From positions 57,616-121,615 of the forward strand of contig CAVPCY010000013.1 of assembly GCA_963702525.1 (NCBI GenBank): a DNA stretch of 64,000 nt, read 5' to 3'. The position numbers and the translations under genes are program-made. The stretch comes from an uncultured Actinomycetes bacterium (lineage in GTDB: Bacteria > Actinomycetota > Coriobacteriia > Anaerosomatales > PHET01). Below are positions 1-9,956 of this stretch, piece after piece (the first letter of the stretch is position 1; every line of letters starts with the position of its first letter). A model generated the notes under the pieces. That model was not told the origin of the DNA and ran no database searches. It saw only the letters and a program-made list of their open reading frames with translations.

Positions 1-231
1 TTCGATCCCGCTTTGCGGCGGTCCCTGGTCTTCTGCATCGTGGACACTCTGCTGAAGCTCGGCTCCGAAGACCAGTTGCTGCTCGTGTGCGACCACGAGC
101 CTGCGGGTCTGGGCTACCAGATCGACCTTCGCAAAGAGTCGCGTGGCCGGTTCGAGTTCACCTACGACCGGCGCTCGGACGGCGCGTGGGTCGCACTGCT
201 GAGGCCCAAGGCGGAGCGGTCAGGACGCTAG
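1..231 (+). CDS. DUF2249-like small protein, 5' end cut by window edge
   Basis: Frame 1 is open from base 1 (ORF track 13..231). The C-terminal pattern LLLVCDHEPAGLGYQ...FEFTY...GAWVALLRPK resembles the DUF2249 family as I remember it. Confidence 0.4.
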   Translation, partial: FDPALRRSLVFCIVDTLLKLGSEDQLLLVCDHEPAGLGYQIDLRKESRGRFEFTYDRRSDGAWVALLRPKAERSGR

Positions 232-924
232 CTCACCGATGTAGCGCGCCAGTTCGTCGAGCGATCCGCGCCGCGTCCCCGCGACACCGCTCTGCGCTCC
301 GACGTAGTACGTGCTCATGCCGATTCGGTCCGCGGCGAGGTCCAGGCTCGCGTCGTCTCCGACCATGAGGCATTCCTCTGGACGCACTTCAAGCAGACTC
401 GCCGTCTGAGCGAAGTAGTCGGACGCCGGTTTGCAGGCGTGCATGTTCTCGTACGAGGTCACTACGTCGAACCACTCCTGGCGAAGTTCCGCCCAGCGCA
501 TCCGCTCGTCGATCGCGGCGCGCGGGAAGATCGGGTTGGTCGCGAGCGCGACCACGAGCCCGGCTTCGCGAGCCGCGCCAACCGCCGCGCATCCTCCCGG
601 CCTGGGTCCGTGTGTGCGCTGAAGAGCGGGAAAGACCTCGGCGTAGAAGCGCTCGACAGCGCCCGCCGGCTCGGGCTCATCGAGATCCACGTCGGTGAGT
701 GCGCGGAAGCGCTCGTGGAAGACGTCGCGGTTCGTTCGTCCCGGGTGGGGCTCGCACATCGTCTCCGTGCTGGCGAGGACCGCCCGAATCCCGTCGGCTG
801 GGTCCACTGTTCCGGCAAGTCGCGCCAACACGGGGCCCAGTGCGCTGAAGTACTCGCGCAGGAACGAGTCGATGTCGATGTCGAGGAGCGTTCCATCCAG
901 GTCGAACAGGACTGCGCGGATCAC
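220..924 (-). CDS. HAD-superfamily hydrolase
   Basis: Minus ORF 220..1053. HAD motif I (VLFDLDGTLLD) follows the GTG at 924 directly, and MVGDDASLD lies near the C-terminus. The upstream 43 codons look like a spurious extension. Confidence 0.75.
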   Translation of the reverse strand: MIRAVLFDLDGTLLDIDIDSFLREYFSALGPVLARLAGTVDPADGIRAVLASTETMCEPHPGRTNRDVFHERFRALTDVDLDEPEPAGAVERFYAEVFPALQRTHGPRPGGCAAVGAAREAGLVVALATNPIFPRAAIDERMRWAELRQEWFDVVTSYENMHACKPASDYFAQTASLLEVRPEECLMVGDDASLDLAADRIGMSTYYVGAQSGVAGTRRGSLDELARYIGELAS

Positions 925-1018
925 GTGTGCGTCCTTCCGGGTGGGGGCGGGGGTGATCGTAGCACGGGGTCGTGGGTAGCATCTCATGGGTGGTTCGGGA
1001 GTGCTTCCTGAACGCACC

Positions 1019-1049
1019 TTGACAAGCCTTATACCTAAGGGGGTATCCT
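1019..1049 (+). promoter_or_regulatory. sigma70-like promoter candidate for the oxidase gene
   Basis: TTGACA at 1019-1024, a 19-nt spacer, then TATCCT at 1044-1049, about 80 nt upstream of the ATG at 1131. Confidence 0.4.
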
Positions 1050-1080
1050 GCACCCGGTGCGAGATACCCTAGGGGGCATC
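1031..1080. promoter_or_regulatory. pair of CsoR/CstR-type operator-like palindromes
   Basis: ATACCTAAGGGGGTAT (1031-1046) and ATACCCTAGGGGGCAT (1064-1079) start 33 bp apart. Each has AT-rich arms flanking C/G tracts, and the first overlaps the promoter spacer and -10. Confidence 0.5.
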
Positions 1081-1130
1081 GCGCCGACGTACCGTTGACG
1101 GCTCGCCGTCACGCGAGAGGAAGAGACACC

Positions 1131-4100
1131 ATGCCCGCTGTCAGTGAGCACATCGAGACTGCCCTGCAGGATATCTGCGGAGCCGAGAGGGTGAAGACCG
1201 ATCAGGTCGAACGCAAGATGTACTCGTTCGACATCGGGGCGATGCCGTCACTGGTCAAGCCGTTCGTGCCCGCCGGTGTGGCCGGCGCGGTCGTCCGCCC
1301 GACAAGCGAGGAACAACTCGTGAAGCTCGTGGCGCTCGCGCAGCGGGAGGGCGTGCCGCTGGTGCCTCGGGGCTGGGCGACGAGCGGCTACGGCGGCGTT
1401 CTCCCCGGCAAGGGGGCCATCGTCGTCGACCTCTCGGGCTGGCAGAGGGTTCTCTCGGTCGACACCGAGAATCTCACCGTTCGAGTTCAGGGCGGTGCGG
1501 TCTGGGAGATGGTGGACCGCGAGATCCAGAAACAGGGACTGACGCTGCGCATGTATCCTTCGAGCTACCCGAGCTCATCTGCGGCCGGCTGGCTTGCGCA
1601 GGGCGGCTCCGGCTTCGGCTCCTACGAGTACGGTCAGTTCAAAGACAACGTCAGGGCGGCTCGCGTCGTGCTGCCCAACGGCGAAACGAAGGAGTTCACC
1701 GGCGACGAGCTGCTGACCTACATCGCCGATGCCGAGGGGACGACCGGCTTCATCACCGAAGTGGAGTTCCAGGTTCGCGCGCTCGAACCCGAGGTCCACC
1801 GCCTCGTGGCGTTCGACAGTGCCGCGCAACTGGGTGGCGCTCTCTCGGCAGTGTCGACCCAGAAGCTCCCCATCTGGTCGATCACGTTCCTCAACCCCGA
1901 ATCTACCAGGCTCAAGAAGCAGCTGCCCCACCGGCACGGGCACCCCTGGGAAGAGGCGCACGGTCACCACGAGCCCGAGATCCCCCAAGCGTACCTTGCG
2001 GTCATCGCCTACCCCGAGTCTCGGCGTGGTGCGATCGACCCGGGCCTGGCGGGCATCGTTCAGGCCCACGGCGGCCGGGAACTCGACGCTGAAGCGGCCG
2101 AGCACGAGTGGGAGCAGCGGTTCGCCCCGATGCGCCTGAAACGCGTCGGCCCGTCCATCATCCCCACCGAGGTGATCGTCCCACTGGCCGAGATGCCCGC
2201 CGTCCTTGGCGAGATCGATGACAAGATCGACCAGCCCTTCATCCTCGAGGGTATGGTCGGTCGGGGTGACAAGGTCGTTCTGCTCGGCTTCATCCCGCAC
2301 GACGAGCGCTCGTTCGGCTTCAACGTGGCGTTCGCACTCTCGCTGTCGGTGATCAAGATCGCGAAGGCCCACAAGGGTGCGGCGTACTCCACCGGCCTGT
2401 ACTTCCGCCGCGAAGCCGAGAGCGTGCTCGGTGCCGAGCGTCTCTCCAGGTTGCGTACCTTCAAGGCGAAGGTCGATCCGAAGGGGATCCTCAATCCCGG
2501 CAAGGTCCACGGCTCGGGCGGCATGCTCGACTTCATCATGGGTAGCGCGTCGACGTTCGAGGGCATAGTGCGGCCGATAGCGAACGCCTTCAAGGCACCG
2601 AGCGGCCCCGGGGACTTGAGCAGGGATGTGAACGGGGTGCCCGGGGACGTGGCGTTCATGGCGTACGCGTGCGCTCGCTGCGGCTACTGCGTGCCCACGT
2701 GCGAGCAGTACACCGGCCGCGGGTGGGAGAGCCACTCTCCGCGTGGCAAGTACGCCTACCTGCGCGAGGTCATGGCCGGGCGTGAGGAGTGGAATCGAAA
2801 GGCTATCGACACGTTCCTCGTCTGCACGACGTGCGAAGTCTGCAATACACGCTGCCAGCTCCAGCTCCCCATCGAGCACAACTGGATGGAGATGCGTGGC
2901 AAGCTGATCGACGAGGAGAAGCGCGGGACCTTCCCGCCGTTCGAGATGATGGCCGCCTCGCTGCGTGGCGAGCGCGACATCTGGGCGGGCAAGGCGGAGA
3001 ACCGGGACGCATGGGTTCCTGCGGATGTCGCCGAGAAGATCCCGGAGCAGTCCGACATCCTCTACTTCGCGGGCTGCACTGCAAGCTTCGTCGAGACCGA
3101 CATCGCCGAGGCCTCCATCCGGCTGCTGCAGGACTCCGGGTATTCGGTGGGCTACATGGGCAAGGACGAGGCGTGCTGCGGCATCCCGATGAAGGTCGCC
3201 GGCAAGTGGGACCTGTTCGAGGAGATCTACGAACACAACGTGTCCGAGGCGCGCAAGCGCGGGGCGAAGACGATCGTGACCTCGTGCCCCGCGTGCGGCT
3301 TGGTGTGGAAGGAGCTCTATGCGAACCTCGCTGCCGAGCGCGGAGAGGAGTTCGAGTTCGAGGTGAAGCACTACTCAGAGCTCGTTGCGCCCGCGCTCGC
3401 CGACGGCACACTCGAGCTCAAGTCGAACCCGCTCGAGGGCAAGACGATCACTTTCCACGATTCGTGCCATATGGGCCGGGCGCAGGGCAACTACGAGCCG
3501 CCGCGCGACATGCTCAAAGCGATACCCGGCGTCGAGATGGTCGAGATGGAGCACAACCGCGAAGAGGGTCTGTGCTGCGGCTCGGTGTTGACGCTCGTCG
3601 GCGAGATGCCGGTTGCTCCGGTTCTCGGCGGTCACCGGCTGCAGGAGGCCGTGGACGCCGGCGCCGATACCGTGGTCGCGCTGTGTCCCTGCTGCCAGGT
3701 TCAGCTTCGGGACTCCAACATCAAGAACGACCTCGGCCTGCAGATCGATGATCTGTCGCGAGTGGTCGCTGAGGCGGCGGGCTACGATATCCCCGAGACG
3801 ACCGAGTACTCCATGTACATGTGGAGCTACTTCGAGAAGTTCATCATCTTGCTCAAGCCGGAGAACATGGCCACGTTCATGACGCGGATCTTCCCGCAGA
3901 TGATGGACGCCATGCCTGCCGGGATGAAGCCGATGATGCTCGGCATGCGACACGTGCCGGGCGGTCTCGCGATGATGGAGAAGATGATGCCGCTCATGTT
4001 CCCGTCGATGGCTCCCGGAATCCTCGGCAAGGTCATGCCCGATATGGTCCGCGAGGTCGAGGAGTACATCGGAGAGATGCCCGAGGACATGGCTGCGCTC

Positions 4101-4232
4101 ATGCCCGACCTGCTGCCCAAGACGATGGACTCACTCATGCCCACGTACCTGCCGGAACTGATCCCGCACCTCGTGCCGCTGTTCATCGACTACATTCGCG
4201 CCATCGATGATGAGCAGGTGGCGGCGGCCTGA
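1131..4232 (+). CDS. FAD-binding oxidase (GlcD-like) fused to an (Fe-S)/CCG-domain protein (GlcF/GlpC-like), with a Met-rich C-terminal extension
   Basis: ORF 1095..4232. The ATG at 1131 is preceded by GAGAGGAAGAG. The N-terminus has an FAD PCMH-type domain (PRGWATSGYGG). The middle has two CxxCxxCxxxC clusters (CARCGYCVPTC, CTTCEVCNTRC), followed by Cys-rich CCG-like motifs (CCGIPM, CPACG, CCGS, CPCCQ). The last ~140 aa are Met-rich. Confidence 0.85.
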   Translation: MPAVSEHIETALQDICGAERVKTDQVERKMYSFDIGAMPSLVKPFVPAGVAGAVVRPTSEEQLVKLVALAQREGVPLVPRGWATSGYGGVLPGKGAIVVDLSGWQRVLSVDTENLTVRVQGGAVWEMVDREIQKQGLTLRMYPSSYPSSSAAGWLAQGGSGFGSYEYGQFKDNVRAARVVLPNGETKEFTGDELLTYIADAEGTTGFITEVEFQVRALEPEVHRLVAFDSAAQLGGALSAVSTQKLPIWSITFLNPESTRLKKQLPHRHGHPWEEAHGHHEPEIPQAYLAVIAYPESRRGAIDPGLAGIVQAHGGRELDAEAAEHEWEQRFAPMRLKRVGPSIIPTEVIVPLAEMPAVLGEIDDKIDQPFILEGMVGRGDKVVLLGFIPHDERSFGFNVAFALSLSVIKIAKAHKGAAYSTGLYFRREAESVLGAERLSRLRTFKAKVDPKGILNPGKVHGSGGMLDFIMGSASTFEGIVRPIANAFKAPSGPGDLSRDVNGVPGDVAFMAYACARCGYCVPTCEQYTGRGWESHSPRGKYAYLREVMAGREEWNRKAIDTFLVCTTCEVCNTRCQLQLPIEHNWMEMRGKLIDEEKRGTFPPFEMMAASLRGERDIWAGKAENRDAWVPADVAEKIPEQSDILYFAGCTASFVETDIAEASIRLLQDSGYSVGYMGKDEACCGIPMKVAGKWDLFEEIYEHNVSEARKRGAKTIVTSCPACGLVWKELYANLAAERGEEFEFEVKHYSELVAPALADGTLELKSNPLEGKTITFHDSCHMGRAQGNYEPPRDMLKAIPGVEMVEMEHNREEGLCCGSVLTLVGEMPVAPVLGGHRLQEAVDAGADTVVALCPCCQVQLRDSNIKNDLGLQIDDLSRVVAEAAGYDIPETTEYSMYMWSYFEKFIILLKPENMATFMTRIFPQMMDAMPAGMKPMMLGMRHVPGGLAMMEKMMPLMFPSMAPGILGKVMPDMVREVEEYIGEMPEDMAALMPDLLPKTMDSLMPTYLPELIPHLVPLFIDYIRAIDDEQVAAA

Positions 4233-4351: not shown

Positions 4352-5050
4352 ATGAACATGACAGCCTCCAAAGAGCAGATACTGTCTCGCCTTGCTGCCA
4401 TCCCCATGTTCTCGGACCTGTCCTCGGACAGCCTCGAGGCCTTGGCGACGATGGTCCAGTACCGTCGCTTCCCAAAGGGCGCCTTCATCGTGGGCCAGGG
4501 AGAGATGGGCACGGCCATGTACCTGCTCGTATCCGGCCGTGTCAAGGTGTCACTCGCCAACCCGGAGGGCCGCGAGCTGGTCCTGAACTACCTCGAGGCT
4601 CCGGCGCACTTCGGCGAGATGGCACTTGTGGACGCGCAGCCGCGCTCGGCAGACGTCATAGCGGTCAGTGACGTGGAGCTCTTCGCGCTCGACGGGCGTG
4701 ACCTGTCCGCCGCGATCCAGCTTCAGCCGCGACTCGCGCTCTCGCTGATCGCGACGCTCTCGCGCCGGCTGCGCCACACCATCGCGCGCCTCGAGGACAT
4801 GGCGTTCCACGACGCGACCCATCGTGTCATGCGAGTGGTCCTCAACGTCGCGACCGCCGGCTACGAGACGCGCGGTGCTCCCGTGATCCAAGGCATGACC
4901 CACTACGATATCGCCACCCTCGCGGGCACCTCGCGCGAGACCGCAAGCCGCGTGATCTCCCAGTTGGCTCGTGACGGGATCGTCACGACGAAGGGCCGGC
5001 GAATCATCGTTTCCCTCGAGCAACTCAGCGCCAGGCTCGAACAAGAGTGA
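4352..5050 (+). CDS. Crp/Fnr-family transcriptional regulator (cNMP-binding domain plus HTH)
   Basis: ORF 4310..5050 with an ATG at 4352. It has a cNMP-binding beta-barrel pattern (FPKGAFIVGQGEMGTAMYLLVSGRVKV...FGEMAL) and a C-terminal HTH (YDIATLAGTSRETASRVISQLARDGIV). There is no N-terminal Cys cluster. Confidence 0.85.
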   Translation: MNMTASKEQILSRLAAIPMFSDLSSDSLEALATMVQYRRFPKGAFIVGQGEMGTAMYLLVSGRVKVSLANPEGRELVLNYLEAPAHFGEMALVDAQPRSADVIAVSDVELFALDGRDLSAAIQLQPRLALSLIATLSRRLRHTIARLEDMAFHDATHRVMRVVLNVATAGYETRGAPVIQGMTHYDIATLAGTSRETASRVISQLARDGIVTTKGRRIIVSLEQLSARLEQE

Positions 5051-5117: not shown

Positions 5118-5192
5118 GGGGACGTTGTTCATCTCGGACCGGTTTCAGGTACATAGAGACCGTGACCTGTTGTGCACCCGGACGGAGGAACG

Positions 5193-5420
5193 ATGAAGGA
5201 CTTCACGCTAGAGGATCTAAAGGCCTTTGACGGTCGTGACGGCAAGCCCGCCTACGTTGCCTACGACGGCGTTGTCTACGACGTGAGCGACAGCGGCATG
5301 TGGTCGGCAGGCGACCACGAGGGCATGCATCAAGCCGGGGCCGACCTGACCGACGAGCACGATGATGCTCCGCATGACGTGTACGTGACCGACTTTCCCC
5401 AGGTTGGCCGGCTCGTCTAG
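5193..5420 (+). CDS. cytochrome b5-like heme/steroid-binding domain protein
   Basis: ORF 5172..5420 with an ATG at 5193 after GGAGGAACG. The pattern FTLEDLKAFDGRDGKPAYVAYDGVVYDVS is typical of small bacterial b5/PGRMC-like proteins. Confidence 0.7.
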   Translation: MKDFTLEDLKAFDGRDGKPAYVAYDGVVYDVSDSGMWSAGDHEGMHQAGADLTDEHDDAPHDVYVTDFPQVGRLV

Positions 5421-8780: not shown

Positions 8781-9257
8781 ATGGAGGGGTGGGAGTTGGA
8801 CGTCGCGCGAGTGAAATGGACGGGTAAGCGCCAGTTCATCGGGACCGATGGGGCGGGGCACAGCGTCGTCATGGACGCGAAACCCGAGTACAAGGGCGAA
8901 GGGTCCGGGTTCCGGCCCGTCGAGCTTGTGCTTCACGGGCTCGCCGCATGCACCGGCATGGACGTCATCGCCGTCTTGGAGAAGAAGCGACAAGACGTTC
9001 GGGGCCTGGAGATCAATGTCGAAGGTGTCCAGCGTGCCGACGAGTACCCCAAGATCTACACTGACGTGGCGGTCGAGTACGTCGTGACGGGCTACAGCGT
9101 GAAGCCCGAGGCGGTCGCCAGGGCGATCGAGCTGTCCGAGAGCAAGTACTGCTCGGTGAAGGGCATGTTCTCGGAGGAGGTCCGTGTCACCACCTCGTAC
9201 CGAGTGGTCGAGGCTGTTTCGGCCGACACCGCGGTCCCTGATGAGAGTGTCGGGTAG
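8781..9257 (+). CDS. OsmC/Ohr-family peroxiredoxin-like protein
   Basis: Pattern GHSVVMDA...GFRPVELVLHGLAACTGMDV...SKYCSV, with the two conserved Cys. The alternative TTG start at 8796 has a better SD (GGAGG at 8784-8788). Confidence 0.8.
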   Translation: MEGWELDVARVKWTGKRQFIGTDGAGHSVVMDAKPEYKGEGSGFRPVELVLHGLAACTGMDVIAVLEKKRQDVRGLEINVEGVQRADEYPKIYTDVAVEYVVTGYSVKPEAVARAIELSESKYCSVKGMFSEEVRVTTSYRVVEAVSADTAVPDESVG

Positions 9258-9260
9258 CCG

Positions 9261-9956
9261 GTGCGCGACGCGGTCTTGATGCCCGTCTACAACGAGGCGT
9301 CCACAGTCGGCTCGGTGCTAGACGCTGTTCGACGCTACTACTCCGGCGAAGTGATCGTCATAGACGACGGGTCGACGGACGATACCGCTCGCGTGCTCGC
9401 GGCCCGAAGTGACGTGGCGGTCGTCAGACTCGACTGCAACTGCGGCTACGGCTGCGCGCTGCGCATCGGGTTCGACGTCGCACGGGAACTCGGCGTGTCG
9501 CACCTCGTGACCATGGACTGCGATGGGCAGCACGAGCCCGCCCACATCCCGGAGTTCCTGGAGGCGCTCGAAGATGGAGCGGCTATCGTCTCAGGCAGCC
9601 GATACCTGCCCGGGAGCGGTACTTCGGGCACGGTGCCGCCGGCGCGCCGCGAGATCAACGCGCGGGTGACGACTCTGATCAACGCTGTGACCGGATGGGG
9701 GTTGACCGATGCGTTCTGCGGGTTCAAGGCGTATCGTGCCGAGGCTCTCGGGCGACTGGCTCTGACGGAGCCGGGATACGCGATGCCCCTGGAGCTCTGG
9801 GCTAAGGCGTGGCGCGCGGGGCTAACGGTCAGCGAGGTTGCCGTGGAGCGGATCTACTGTGACCGCGACCGGTCGTTCGGGGCATCGCTTGACGATCCCG
9901 AGAAGCGATACGCGTACTATCTCGAAGTCTGGAATCGTGCGCTGGAGGCTGAGTAG
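9261..9956 (+). CDS. family 2 glycosyltransferase (Dpm1/GtrB-like, soluble)
   Basis: The GTG lies 3 nt after the osmC stop. GT2 signatures: LMPVYNE, VIDDGSTD, TMDCDGQH. Confidence 0.8.
   Translation: MRDAVLMPVYNEASTVGSVLDAVRRYYSGEVIVIDDGSTDDTARVLAARSDVAVVRLDCNCGYGCALRIGFDVARELGVSHLVTMDCDGQHEPAHIPEFLEALEDGAAIVSGSRYLPGSGTSGTVPPARREINARVTTLINAVTGWGLTDAFCGFKAYRAEALGRLALTEPGYAMPLELWAKAWRAGLTVSEVAVERIYCDRDRSFGASLDDPEKRYAYYLEVWNRALEAE

Follow-up and report, generated by a model that had tools for sequence, protein, structure and literature searches.

A conserved methionine- and proline-rich helical domain at the C-terminus of a family of FAD/Fe-S/CCG oxidoreductases, with a putative role in docking the electron acceptor

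Within a 64,000-nucleotide stretch of DNA from an uncultured bacterium of the Actinomycetes (hereafter the window; all coordinates are positions within it unless stated otherwise), one gene encodes an FAD/Fe-S oxidoreductase with two CCG domains, and this protein ends in a methionine- and proline-rich tail. We find that the tail is a conserved domain under purifying selection, found only at the C-terminus of these enzymes. Previously undescribed and about 135 residues long, it extends a known enzyme architecture in a new way; in the literature on methionine-rich proteins together with heterodisulfide reductase or CCG, and on HdrD/GlcD fusions, we found no description of it. Structure models predict that it is an autonomously folding domain of five helices. 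From its sequence and by analogy with other systems, we propose that it could be a pliable hydrophobic module that docks the electron acceptor at the HdrD-like output site of the enzyme, with menaquinone or the membrane as the favoured target, a reading that we regard as possible although short of probable.

As first delimited, the tail is encoded at 3813–4229 on the forward strand and the whole domain begins slightly upstream, at 3801 (Table 1); residue numbers are counted along the open reading frame (ORF) 1095–4232. The original prediction had described a methionine-rich extension of about 139 residues with some 24 Met, and translation of 3813–4229 reproduces the sequence that it quoted: 139 residues with 24 Met (17.3%), 16 Pro, two His and no Cys. 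Met-Pro pairs number six, rather than the seven or more that had been counted, and almost all of the Pro residues are preceded by a hydrophobic residue. The Met share of the 900-residue body of the protein is only 2.6% (binomial P ~2e-13), and the tail is the Met-richest 139-residue segment among the long ORFs of the 2.33 Mb genome, the runner-up having 16 Met. Hydrophobic residues (M, L, I, V, F, W, Y, A and P) make up 66% of the tail as against 47% of the body.

A search with residues 900–1045 alone, of the kind suggested with the original prediction, showed that orthologues do carry the tail. It matched 254 proteins, mostly from metagenome-assembled genomes (MAGs) of Coriobacteriia and Actinomycetota; most of these are about 1000–1067 amino acids long with the same domain set, and about ten are shorter partial sequences. 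The best 120 of the 254 are 71–90% identical across the tail, and in an alignment of 120 tails, with 20–27 Met each, the Met and Pro columns are almost invariant. The ratio of nonsynonymous to synonymous substitution rates (dN/dS) of the tail is 0.05–0.28 against eight orthologous loci, and this purifying selection, together with the high identity among homologues, confirms that the tail is translated in the frame originally assigned to it. Creation of the tail by a frameshift or assembly artefact, which would have left it missing from orthologues, is ruled out by the same low dN/dS and because more than 250 proteins and 80 genome loci share this open, conserved frame.

The domain reaches well beyond these close relatives. 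A profile search of 1.84 billion cluster representatives returned 138 matches, in which the complete proteins with the domain are only FAD/Fe-S/CCG enzymes of about 1000–1075 amino acids, always with the domain at the C-terminus (P0138, P0166, P0170, P0171, P0182, P0205 and P0242); the remainder are mostly fragments and a few odd short proteins. Diverged tails have 23–45% identity to that of the window, and most retain 16–21% Met and 15–22 Pro. Two lineages keep the domain with only nine and 12 Met, carrying Leu, Ile or Val at the matching positions, and His residues vary from none to four among homologous tails, with none conserved. When one genome was scanned for each species, the domain turned up among cultured bacteria in Slackia exigua ATCC 700122, Neobacillus sp. 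LXY-4, Bacillus sp. DNRA2 and several Desulfosporosinus, as well as in delta-proteobacterial MAGs. Among 151 genomes sampled from the class of the window, 56 have the tail and 95 do not; 54 of the 56 belong to the window's own order, where the tail is nearly universal.

We considered whether stand-alone small versions of the domain exist, and rejected this, as the matches of 62–66 amino acids are fragments and not independent genes. One (L086) is a tandem duplicate at a contig edge, and another (L087) is a 5'-truncated, frameshifted remnant of the domain. This Met/Pro-domain remnant (L087:3868-4201, also L088 and L089) has an identical 66-residue product on six metagenome contigs, three of which, from three samples, were examined. 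The sole match hinting at the domain in another architecture is P0187, a short protein of 219 amino acids that begins with a zinc-ribbon-like CPRC motif and matches part of the domain, with few Met (E = 3e-10).

The fold of the domain was modelled twice with AlphaFold2. The full-length model, built from an alignment of 52 homologues, has a mean predicted local distance difference test (pLDDT) score of 88.5 and a predicted template modelling (pTM) score of 0.85; blocks of the tail score about 85–94 and are all helical, and the final nine or so residues, which vary among orthologues, are of low confidence. A model of the tail alone, built from 36 diverse tails, is also confident (pLDDT 89.5, pTM 0.78) with the same five helices, and so the tail is predicted to fold independently. 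The helices span residues 903–920, 922–938, 944–953, 957–992 and 997–1036. In the two long helices, of 36 and 40 residues, Pro, hydrophobic and polar positions repeat every 3.8–4.0 residues, and residues 1003–1028 can be read as tetrads of a hydrophobic residue, then Met, Leu, Ile or Val, then Pro, then a polar residue. The amphipathic helices that the original prediction had proposed to look for in a structural model are thus of a particular kind, as the long helices are predicted to expose only a narrow polar stripe. That the tail is instead a disordered stretch of low complexity is ruled out by the two confident models.

Comparison with known families places the domain near nothing that has been described. 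Pfam contains no family that matches the tail of the window, and NCBIfam gave merely two weak chance matches to pyrophosphatase models, far under their cut-offs. When the 36 diverse tails were compared with Pfam at E-values up to 10, no consistent family emerged, and DUF1641 was not among the matches. A Foldseek search of the Protein Data Bank (PDB) with the tail model found no match, and a profile search of the PDB gave only a marginal match, to a designed helical-repeat protein. The M domain of SRP54/Ffh (SRP_SPB), a methionine-rich candidate, was rejected, as it matches the tail in neither Pfam, NCBIfam nor the PDB. Two of the 36 tails weakly match PF09330, the membrane-binding domain of E. 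coli-type D-lactate dehydrogenase (best E = 0.009), which we treated as noise. Some eukaryotic proteins with multiple saposin repeats (P0180, P0189, P0230 and P0249) match positions 84–126 of the tail profile through four to seven weak repeats each, the matching saposin segment being LPxxLxxxCDxLVxxYxPxIIxxL. Homology with saposins is rejected because the tail has no cysteines, as against the saposin pattern of six cysteines in three disulfides, and the resemblance is probably a convergent one of helix-turn-helix composition.

The rest of the enzyme is of a familiar type. Its ORF, the sole long coding frame across the region, is open from a TTG at 1095 to 4232, and the ATG at 1131 (MPAVSEH) is likely to be the true start, since it fits the lengths of orthologues (1023–1035 amino acids). 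The flavin module (Pfam E-values of 1e-35 for FAD_binding_4 and 5e-11 for FAD-oxidase_C) has a fold like that of D-lactate and D-2-hydroxyacid dehydrogenases, with Foldseek TM-scores of 0.82–0.85 (target-normalised) to D-lactate dehydrogenases, and by sequence it matches mitochondrial LDHD and glycolate oxidase in the PDB. All eight Cys of the ferredoxin-like domain are invariant in the 52 homologues, and so are the ten motif cysteines of the CCG domains (C661, C694, C695, C731 and C734; C791, C827, C828, C864 and C866/867), which we presume to be the output redox site of the enzyme. The last Cys motif is CPCC, at residues 864–867. The N-terminus, MPAVSEHIETALQD, shows no signal peptide when the translation is read by eye; for this reason, and because it is an Fe-S flavoprotein, the enzyme is most likely cytoplasmic.

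The same order of modules (FAD_binding_4, FAD-oxidase_C, two [4Fe-4S] and two CCG) is found in GlcD plus GlcF, in D-lactate dehydrogenase of the Dld-II type, in E. coli YdiJ and in LdhH, none of which shows a counterpart of the 140-residue Met/Pro domain. No NCBIfam equivalog is reached by the enzyme (GlcD scores 99 against a cut-off of 568, YdiJ 58 against 1350 and LdhH 143 against 800), and because the scores for GlcD, GlcF, YdiJ, LdhH, TfrB and GlpC are all far below their cut-offs, it is not an orthologue of any characterised member. Matches to the LdhH, TfrB, GlpC, HmcF and TmcB models all stop within residues 874–893, and therefore the tail is an addition to the known CCG module. This agrees with the original view that the tail is foreign to glycolate and D-lactate oxidase-type enzymes, as the matches to GlcF and HdrD likewise end at about residue 890. 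The sole paralogue in the genome aligns with residues 654–903 only.

The second CCG domain is the final redox centre of the chain, and the Met/Pro-rich domain follows it immediately. Electrons would follow a path within a single chain, from FAD through the two [4Fe-4S] clusters to the CCG clusters, and at this output site the domain may offer the acceptor a soft hydrophobic surface or pocket lined with thioethers. The acceptor would most likely be lipophilic, namely menaquinone and/or the membrane surface, and the enzyme could then reduce the quinone pool without a membrane subunit. In such a role Met would contribute flexibility and hydrophobicity rather than bind metal, and the working mode might be analogous to that of the C-terminal amphipathic helices of NDH-2 and SQR, or of helical membrane plug-in (HMP) proteins. 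Docking of a membrane- or partner-type had already been offered as an alternative in the original prediction; it is the best available idea and a plausible one, although the models show the putative module folded into five helices rather than as a loose tail.

We rank docking of menaquinone or the membrane first, and docking of a sulfur carrier or thiol second. The first rank is given because of the absence of a membrane partner gene (in the contexts examined, none for a membrane subunit regularly adjoins the enzyme gene), the extreme hydrophobicity of the domain, and precedents among CCG proteins and helical scaffolds. HdrD, HdrB, DsrK, TfrB, GlpC and SdhE, like the window enzyme, have two full CCG motifs after a ferredoxin-like domain, but they use separate partners (a cytochrome b, a flavoprotein or SdhF), whereas the window enzyme is one polypeptide with a C-terminal helical domain. 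SdhE, GlpC and DsrK are believed to lie at the membrane although they have no transmembrane helices, and CCG proteins such as SdhE serve as monotopic anchors on the quinone side (PMC2754724). The closest analogy for the tail is with the HMP proteins ForE, HucM and YjlC, all-helical modules lined with hydrophobic residues that act as scaffolds on soluble oxidoreductases and bring menaquinone to them (PMC13433803). HMPs are, however, separate proteins that form tetrameric tubes, whereas the window domain is fused and matches them neither in Pfam, across the 36 tails, nor in Foldseek. The methionine-bristle sites of the SRP54/Ffh M domain, Get3 and calmodulin use Met on amphipathic helices for its flexible hydrophobic side chain, as we propose for the tail, a likeness in keeping with the swap of Met for Leu, Ile or Val in some lineages. 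The tail differs from these proteins in its much higher Met density, in having Pro every four residues, and in the lack of any sequence or family match to them.

Several observations weigh against docking of menaquinone or the membrane. The domain has no transmembrane segment, the top Kyte-Doolittle mean over 19 residues being 1.1. Its net charge, -10 in the window, varies between -10 and +8 across homologues, leaving no conserved cationic face for anionic lipids, and it is modelled as a compact unit with no obvious need of lipid. It has no sequence or fold match to a known membrane- or quinone-binding domain, and the proposal assumes that the tail touches the CCG site. Evidence from regulation and gene neighbourhoods, described below, points to sulfur and thiol chemistry, which would fit a soluble acceptor equally well.

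The distribution of menaquinone synthesis is a further point, as it does not discriminate. MenA scores above its cut-off in only 16 of the 151 genomes of the class; most tail-bearing genomes lack it, among them all those in the family to which the window belongs. A refutation of quinone docking on these grounds fails, as MqnA is present: tail-bearing genomes of the family, including that of the window, have strong matches to MqnA and MqnD of the futalosine pathway and a UbiA-family prenyltransferase. A strong match to MqnA or MenA is found in at least 48 of the 56 tail-bearing genomes as compared with 15 of the 95 without the tail. Within the order of the window, however, menaquinone synthesis is nearly universal with or without the tail, and for this reason the quinone reading is neither refuted nor specifically supported. 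The UbiA-family prenyltransferase does not score as MenA; its gene (C13:25610-26326) lies about 32 kb upstream of the window, and at equivalent sites in other genomes of the family (G059, G083, G115 and G125) such a gene is found on the same contig as the enzyme gene, about 32–39 kb from it. Together with the MqnA matches it suggests menaquinone synthesis by the futalosine route. The genome has two MqnA-like genes with near-identical scores on different contigs (C28:7447-8211 and C21:52659-53423), and with an estimated contamination of 5% this suggests that the bin may hold two closely related strains.

Regulation of the enzyme gene can be approached through its promoter. Two boxes of the CsoR-family operator type ATACC-Nx-GGGTAT, 33 bp apart, stand upstream of the gene and are the sole tandem pair in the genome. 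Across 51 orthologous loci with full upstream sequence, at least one box is present in 43 promoters and two boxes in 29, mostly 32–36 bp apart, with conserved arms and variable spacers. The strict palindromic box occurs 18 times in the genome, counting both strands, as against about 3.4 occurrences expected. Eight genome sites, including that of the enzyme gene, belong to the class ATACC(C)-N-GGGGTAT, the others being C13:8101, C13:9445, C13:16489, C14:20401, C20:61888, C22:27372 and C25:22444; together they make up a candidate regulon of the box ATACCCC-N2-3-GGGGTAT. The seven other boxes precede genes for a thioredoxin, the CsoR-family regulator itself with a divergent CDF transporter, a CcdA/DsbD-type thiol-disulfide membrane protein (DsbD_TM), a membrane-anchored rhodanese, a chemotaxis receptor, a glyoxalase/ArsR pair and a probable NAD synthetase. 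In the genome-wide scan no box was found upstream of any of the three candidate copper/heavy-metal P1B-ATPase genes.

The genome encodes only one CsoR-family protein (PF02583), which consists of two fused CsoR domains; its gene lies about 48 kb upstream on the same contig and is transcribed away from a CDF cation-efflux gene, an operator box separating the two. CsoR-family repressors are normally single-domain proteins that form tetramers, and a covalent tandem in one chain is unusual. Each of its domains has a Cys (position 0), Ala or Ser at +25 and Cys at +29. We take +25 to be the His ligand of copper-sensing CsoR and the Cys...Cys pattern to be that of persulfide-sensing CstR (from CsoR of M. 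tuberculosis and CstR of S. aureus), so that neither domain has the Cys-His-Cys set of Cu(I) ligands. Because the boxes precede thioredoxin, rhodanese and CcdA genes and not those of P1B-ATPases, and because the regulator has the Cys...Cys pattern, the box regulon looks like one of thiol and reactive-sulfur stress rather than of copper. In the lineage of the window the enzyme appears, judging by these sequence patterns, to belong to such a regulon under a CstR-like member of the CsoR family.

It is this regulon, with the gene neighbourhoods, that ranks docking of sulfur or thiol compounds second. The domain would here dock a sulfur carrier or thiol substrate at the HdrD-like, disulfide-reducing site, the candidate partners being a TusA, DsrE or rhodanese-type carrier, thioredoxin, the disulfide or persulfide of a low-molecular-weight thiol, or hydrophobic polysulfide or S8, and the enzyme would be a reductase driven by 2-hydroxyacids in the response to reactive-sulfur stress. 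We consider this rather unlikely. In its favour, the ten CCG cysteines are intact, as in heterodisulfide reductases, and a bacillithiol-like biosynthesis cassette lies 4.5 kb downstream of the enzyme gene, in an arrangement kept in L005, a related complete genome used for gene-order comparison. In Desulfosporosinus paludis the gene just before the orthologue encodes a CsoR-family protein (Cys, Tyr at +25, Cys at +29), the only such adjacency among 86 sequences searched; in strain SB140 (L074, 2568–12388) the order is a box, this gene, the enzyme gene, a second box, a putative multihaem cytochrome, two ORFs of the YeeE/YedE sulfur-transport type, and a Psr/Phs-like molybdoenzyme with Fe-S and NrfD subunits, a compact group of genes related to sulfur in an organism that is in culture. 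In Neobacillus a DsrE_2-TusA pair 4 kb from the orthologue has a box in front of it, and the domain remnant of L087 lies downstream of an operon of DsrE_2, TusA, NarI-like and HdrD/DsrK-like genes and a 109-residue protein. These links with sulfur genes recur and are not universal. They are sporadic, with no carrier gene consistently adjacent; the orthologues of Slackia, Neobacillus, Bacillus DNRA2, most Desulfosporosinus and the delta-proteobacterial MAGs have no box upstream, and outside the order of the window the only orthologue with a box directly upstream is in one Bacilli MAG (L083). Moreover, nothing in the domain, which has no Cys, is known to bind sulfur species, and regulation speaks to the purpose of the enzyme, not to the job of its tail.

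The composition that suggests docking of menaquinone or the membrane can also be explained in other ways. The domain may be an oligomerisation scaffold, its long helices pairing between subunits in a right-handed coiled-coil-like bundle or tube to make a dimer or tetramer, which might enclose a hydrophobic channel as HMP proteins do. A hydrophobic period of 3.8–4.0, which exceeds the 3.6 of an isolated alpha helix, and a hydrophobic content above what a monomeric bundle of 140 residues needs are in keeping with this, as are the designed helical-repeat protein as the only weak match in the PDB and the tetrameric tubes of HMP scaffolds (PMC13433803). The monomer model is nevertheless already compact and confident, and the 36 diverse tails match neither DUF1641/HMP nor any other family in Pfam, and we think such a scaffold improbable. 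Still less credit is due to the copper-linked role put forward in the original prediction, in which MxxM and MP arrays bind Cu(I) or Ag(I) through thioethers and thereby sense or buffer copper or shield the Fe-S clusters. The very high Met density, the boxes upstream and the CDF metal exporter gene beside that of the regulator all invite it, and the MxxM-like spacing is shared with CopC/PcoC, the Met-rich insert of CueO, CusF and SilE/PcoE. Those proteins are exported, however, as is typical of proteins with Met-only Cu(I) sites, which are periplasmic or extracellular, and they pair Met with His, Asp or Trp ligands, whereas the enzyme is most likely cytoplasmic and its tail has neither Cys nor conserved His. 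The loss of Met is tolerated, since homologues with nine or 12 retain the domain, and in the models the Met residues appear to lie on the helical hydrophobic repeat, in the core or at the surface, rather than in loops. There is no genomic link with cop genes either: no copZ or copA was seen in the neighbourhoods examined, the P1B-ATPase genes have no boxes, and in the regulator the C-H-C copper site is without its His. The boxes predicted from the sequence of the window stand, and the link to copper drawn from them is not supported; CsoR-like boxes do not imply copper, an easy mistake that the evidence of the regulon corrects. Least credible of all is a sacrificial antioxidant shield, with surface Met scavenging oxidants near the oxygen-sensitive CCG clusters and being recycled by methionine sulfoxide reductases. 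High Met content beside oxygen-labile clusters and a thiol-stress-type regulon that includes thioredoxin would suit it, but the strict conservation of positions, the Pro pattern and the defined fold exceed the needs of a scavenger, homologues with few Met exist, and neither msrA nor msrB was seen in the neighbourhoods examined.

As regards the wider neighbourhood, the enzyme gene looks monocistronic in all contexts examined. The order of genes in L005 is that of the window: HAD hydrolase, fusion gene, Crp-family regulator, cytochrome-b5-like protein, RNA methyltransferase, a 636-residue protein, OsmC, GT2, PIG-L and BshC-like, with the 636-residue protein, which has no Pfam match, standing where the window has a PilT fusion. 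A Crp-family gene also adjoins the orthologues in Neobacillus (L080:6828-7499, reverse strand) and Bacillus sp. DNRA2 (L082:6439-7122, reverse strand), and such adjacency across phyla suggests a second conserved regulatory layer. One further locus (L076) has a nearby gene that is cytochrome b-like by appearance, without a Pfam scan.

Table 1. Positions of the enzyme gene, its domains and regulatory boxes, neighbouring genes and the CsoR-family regulator.
Feature	Position	Strand	Basis or context
HAD-family hydrolase, divergent; 5' end approximate	220..930	-	Position kept in L005
Two CsoR-family-type operator boxes: ATACCTAAGGGGGTAT (1031-1046) and ATACCCTAGGGGGCAT (1064-1079)	1031..1079	.	Directly upstream of enzyme gene
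FAD/Fe-S/CCG oxidoreductase gene, ~1033 aa, with Met/Pro-rich end domain	1131..4232	+	ORF call, Pfam, homologues
Flavin dehydrogenase module: FAD_binding_4 (residues 65-201) and FAD-oxidase_C (237-471)	1287..2507	+	Pfam
Ferredoxin-like 2x[4Fe-4S] domain, residues 523-591	2661..2867	+	Pfam Fer4_17
Two CCG domains, HdrB/HdrD-type	3057..3716	+	Pfam CCG, two stretches
Met/Pro-rich five-helix domain (predicted fold), residues 903-1045	3801..4229	+	AlphaFold, alignment, dN/dS
Crp/Fnr-family regulator, no Cys, directly downstream of enzyme gene	4352..5050 (or from 4310)	+	ORF call, L005
Small protein with cytochrome-b5-like haem-binding domain	5172..5420	+	Position kept in L005
Tandem CsoR-family regulator	genome contig C13 ~8805-9400, outside window; locus L001:1138-1700	-	PF02583

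A bolder reading would unite the two kinds of acceptor. The domain might be a built-in chamber for sulfur species or a lipophilic acceptor, in a one-chain enzyme that passes electrons from 2-hydroxyacids to persulfides, polysulfides or a bacillithiol-like disulfide or, in the manner of SQR, to menaquinone, and that serves anaerobic Actinomycetota and Bacillota as an effector in a regulon of the CstR type against reactive-sulfur stress; we hold this to be speculative and improbable as a whole. Whichever acceptor is involved, the enzyme family is widespread in anaerobes, being near-universal in the Coriobacteriia-like order of the window and present also in Bacillota and Desulfobacterota. No characterised member carries the domain, for which there is neither a family name nor a structural relative, and its build is unusual, with 17–21% Met and Pro at every fourth residue within long helices. 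The question is directly testable in the cultured hosts Slackia exigua ATCC 700122 and Desulfosporosinus paludis SB140. If the domain does serve as a fused docking site for quinone, membrane or sulfur compounds, it would represent a new route by which a soluble-type Fe-S flavoenzyme reaches its acceptor without a membrane subunit, and it would give a function to hundreds of genes that are labelled only 'FAD-binding and (Fe-S)-binding domain-containing protein'.

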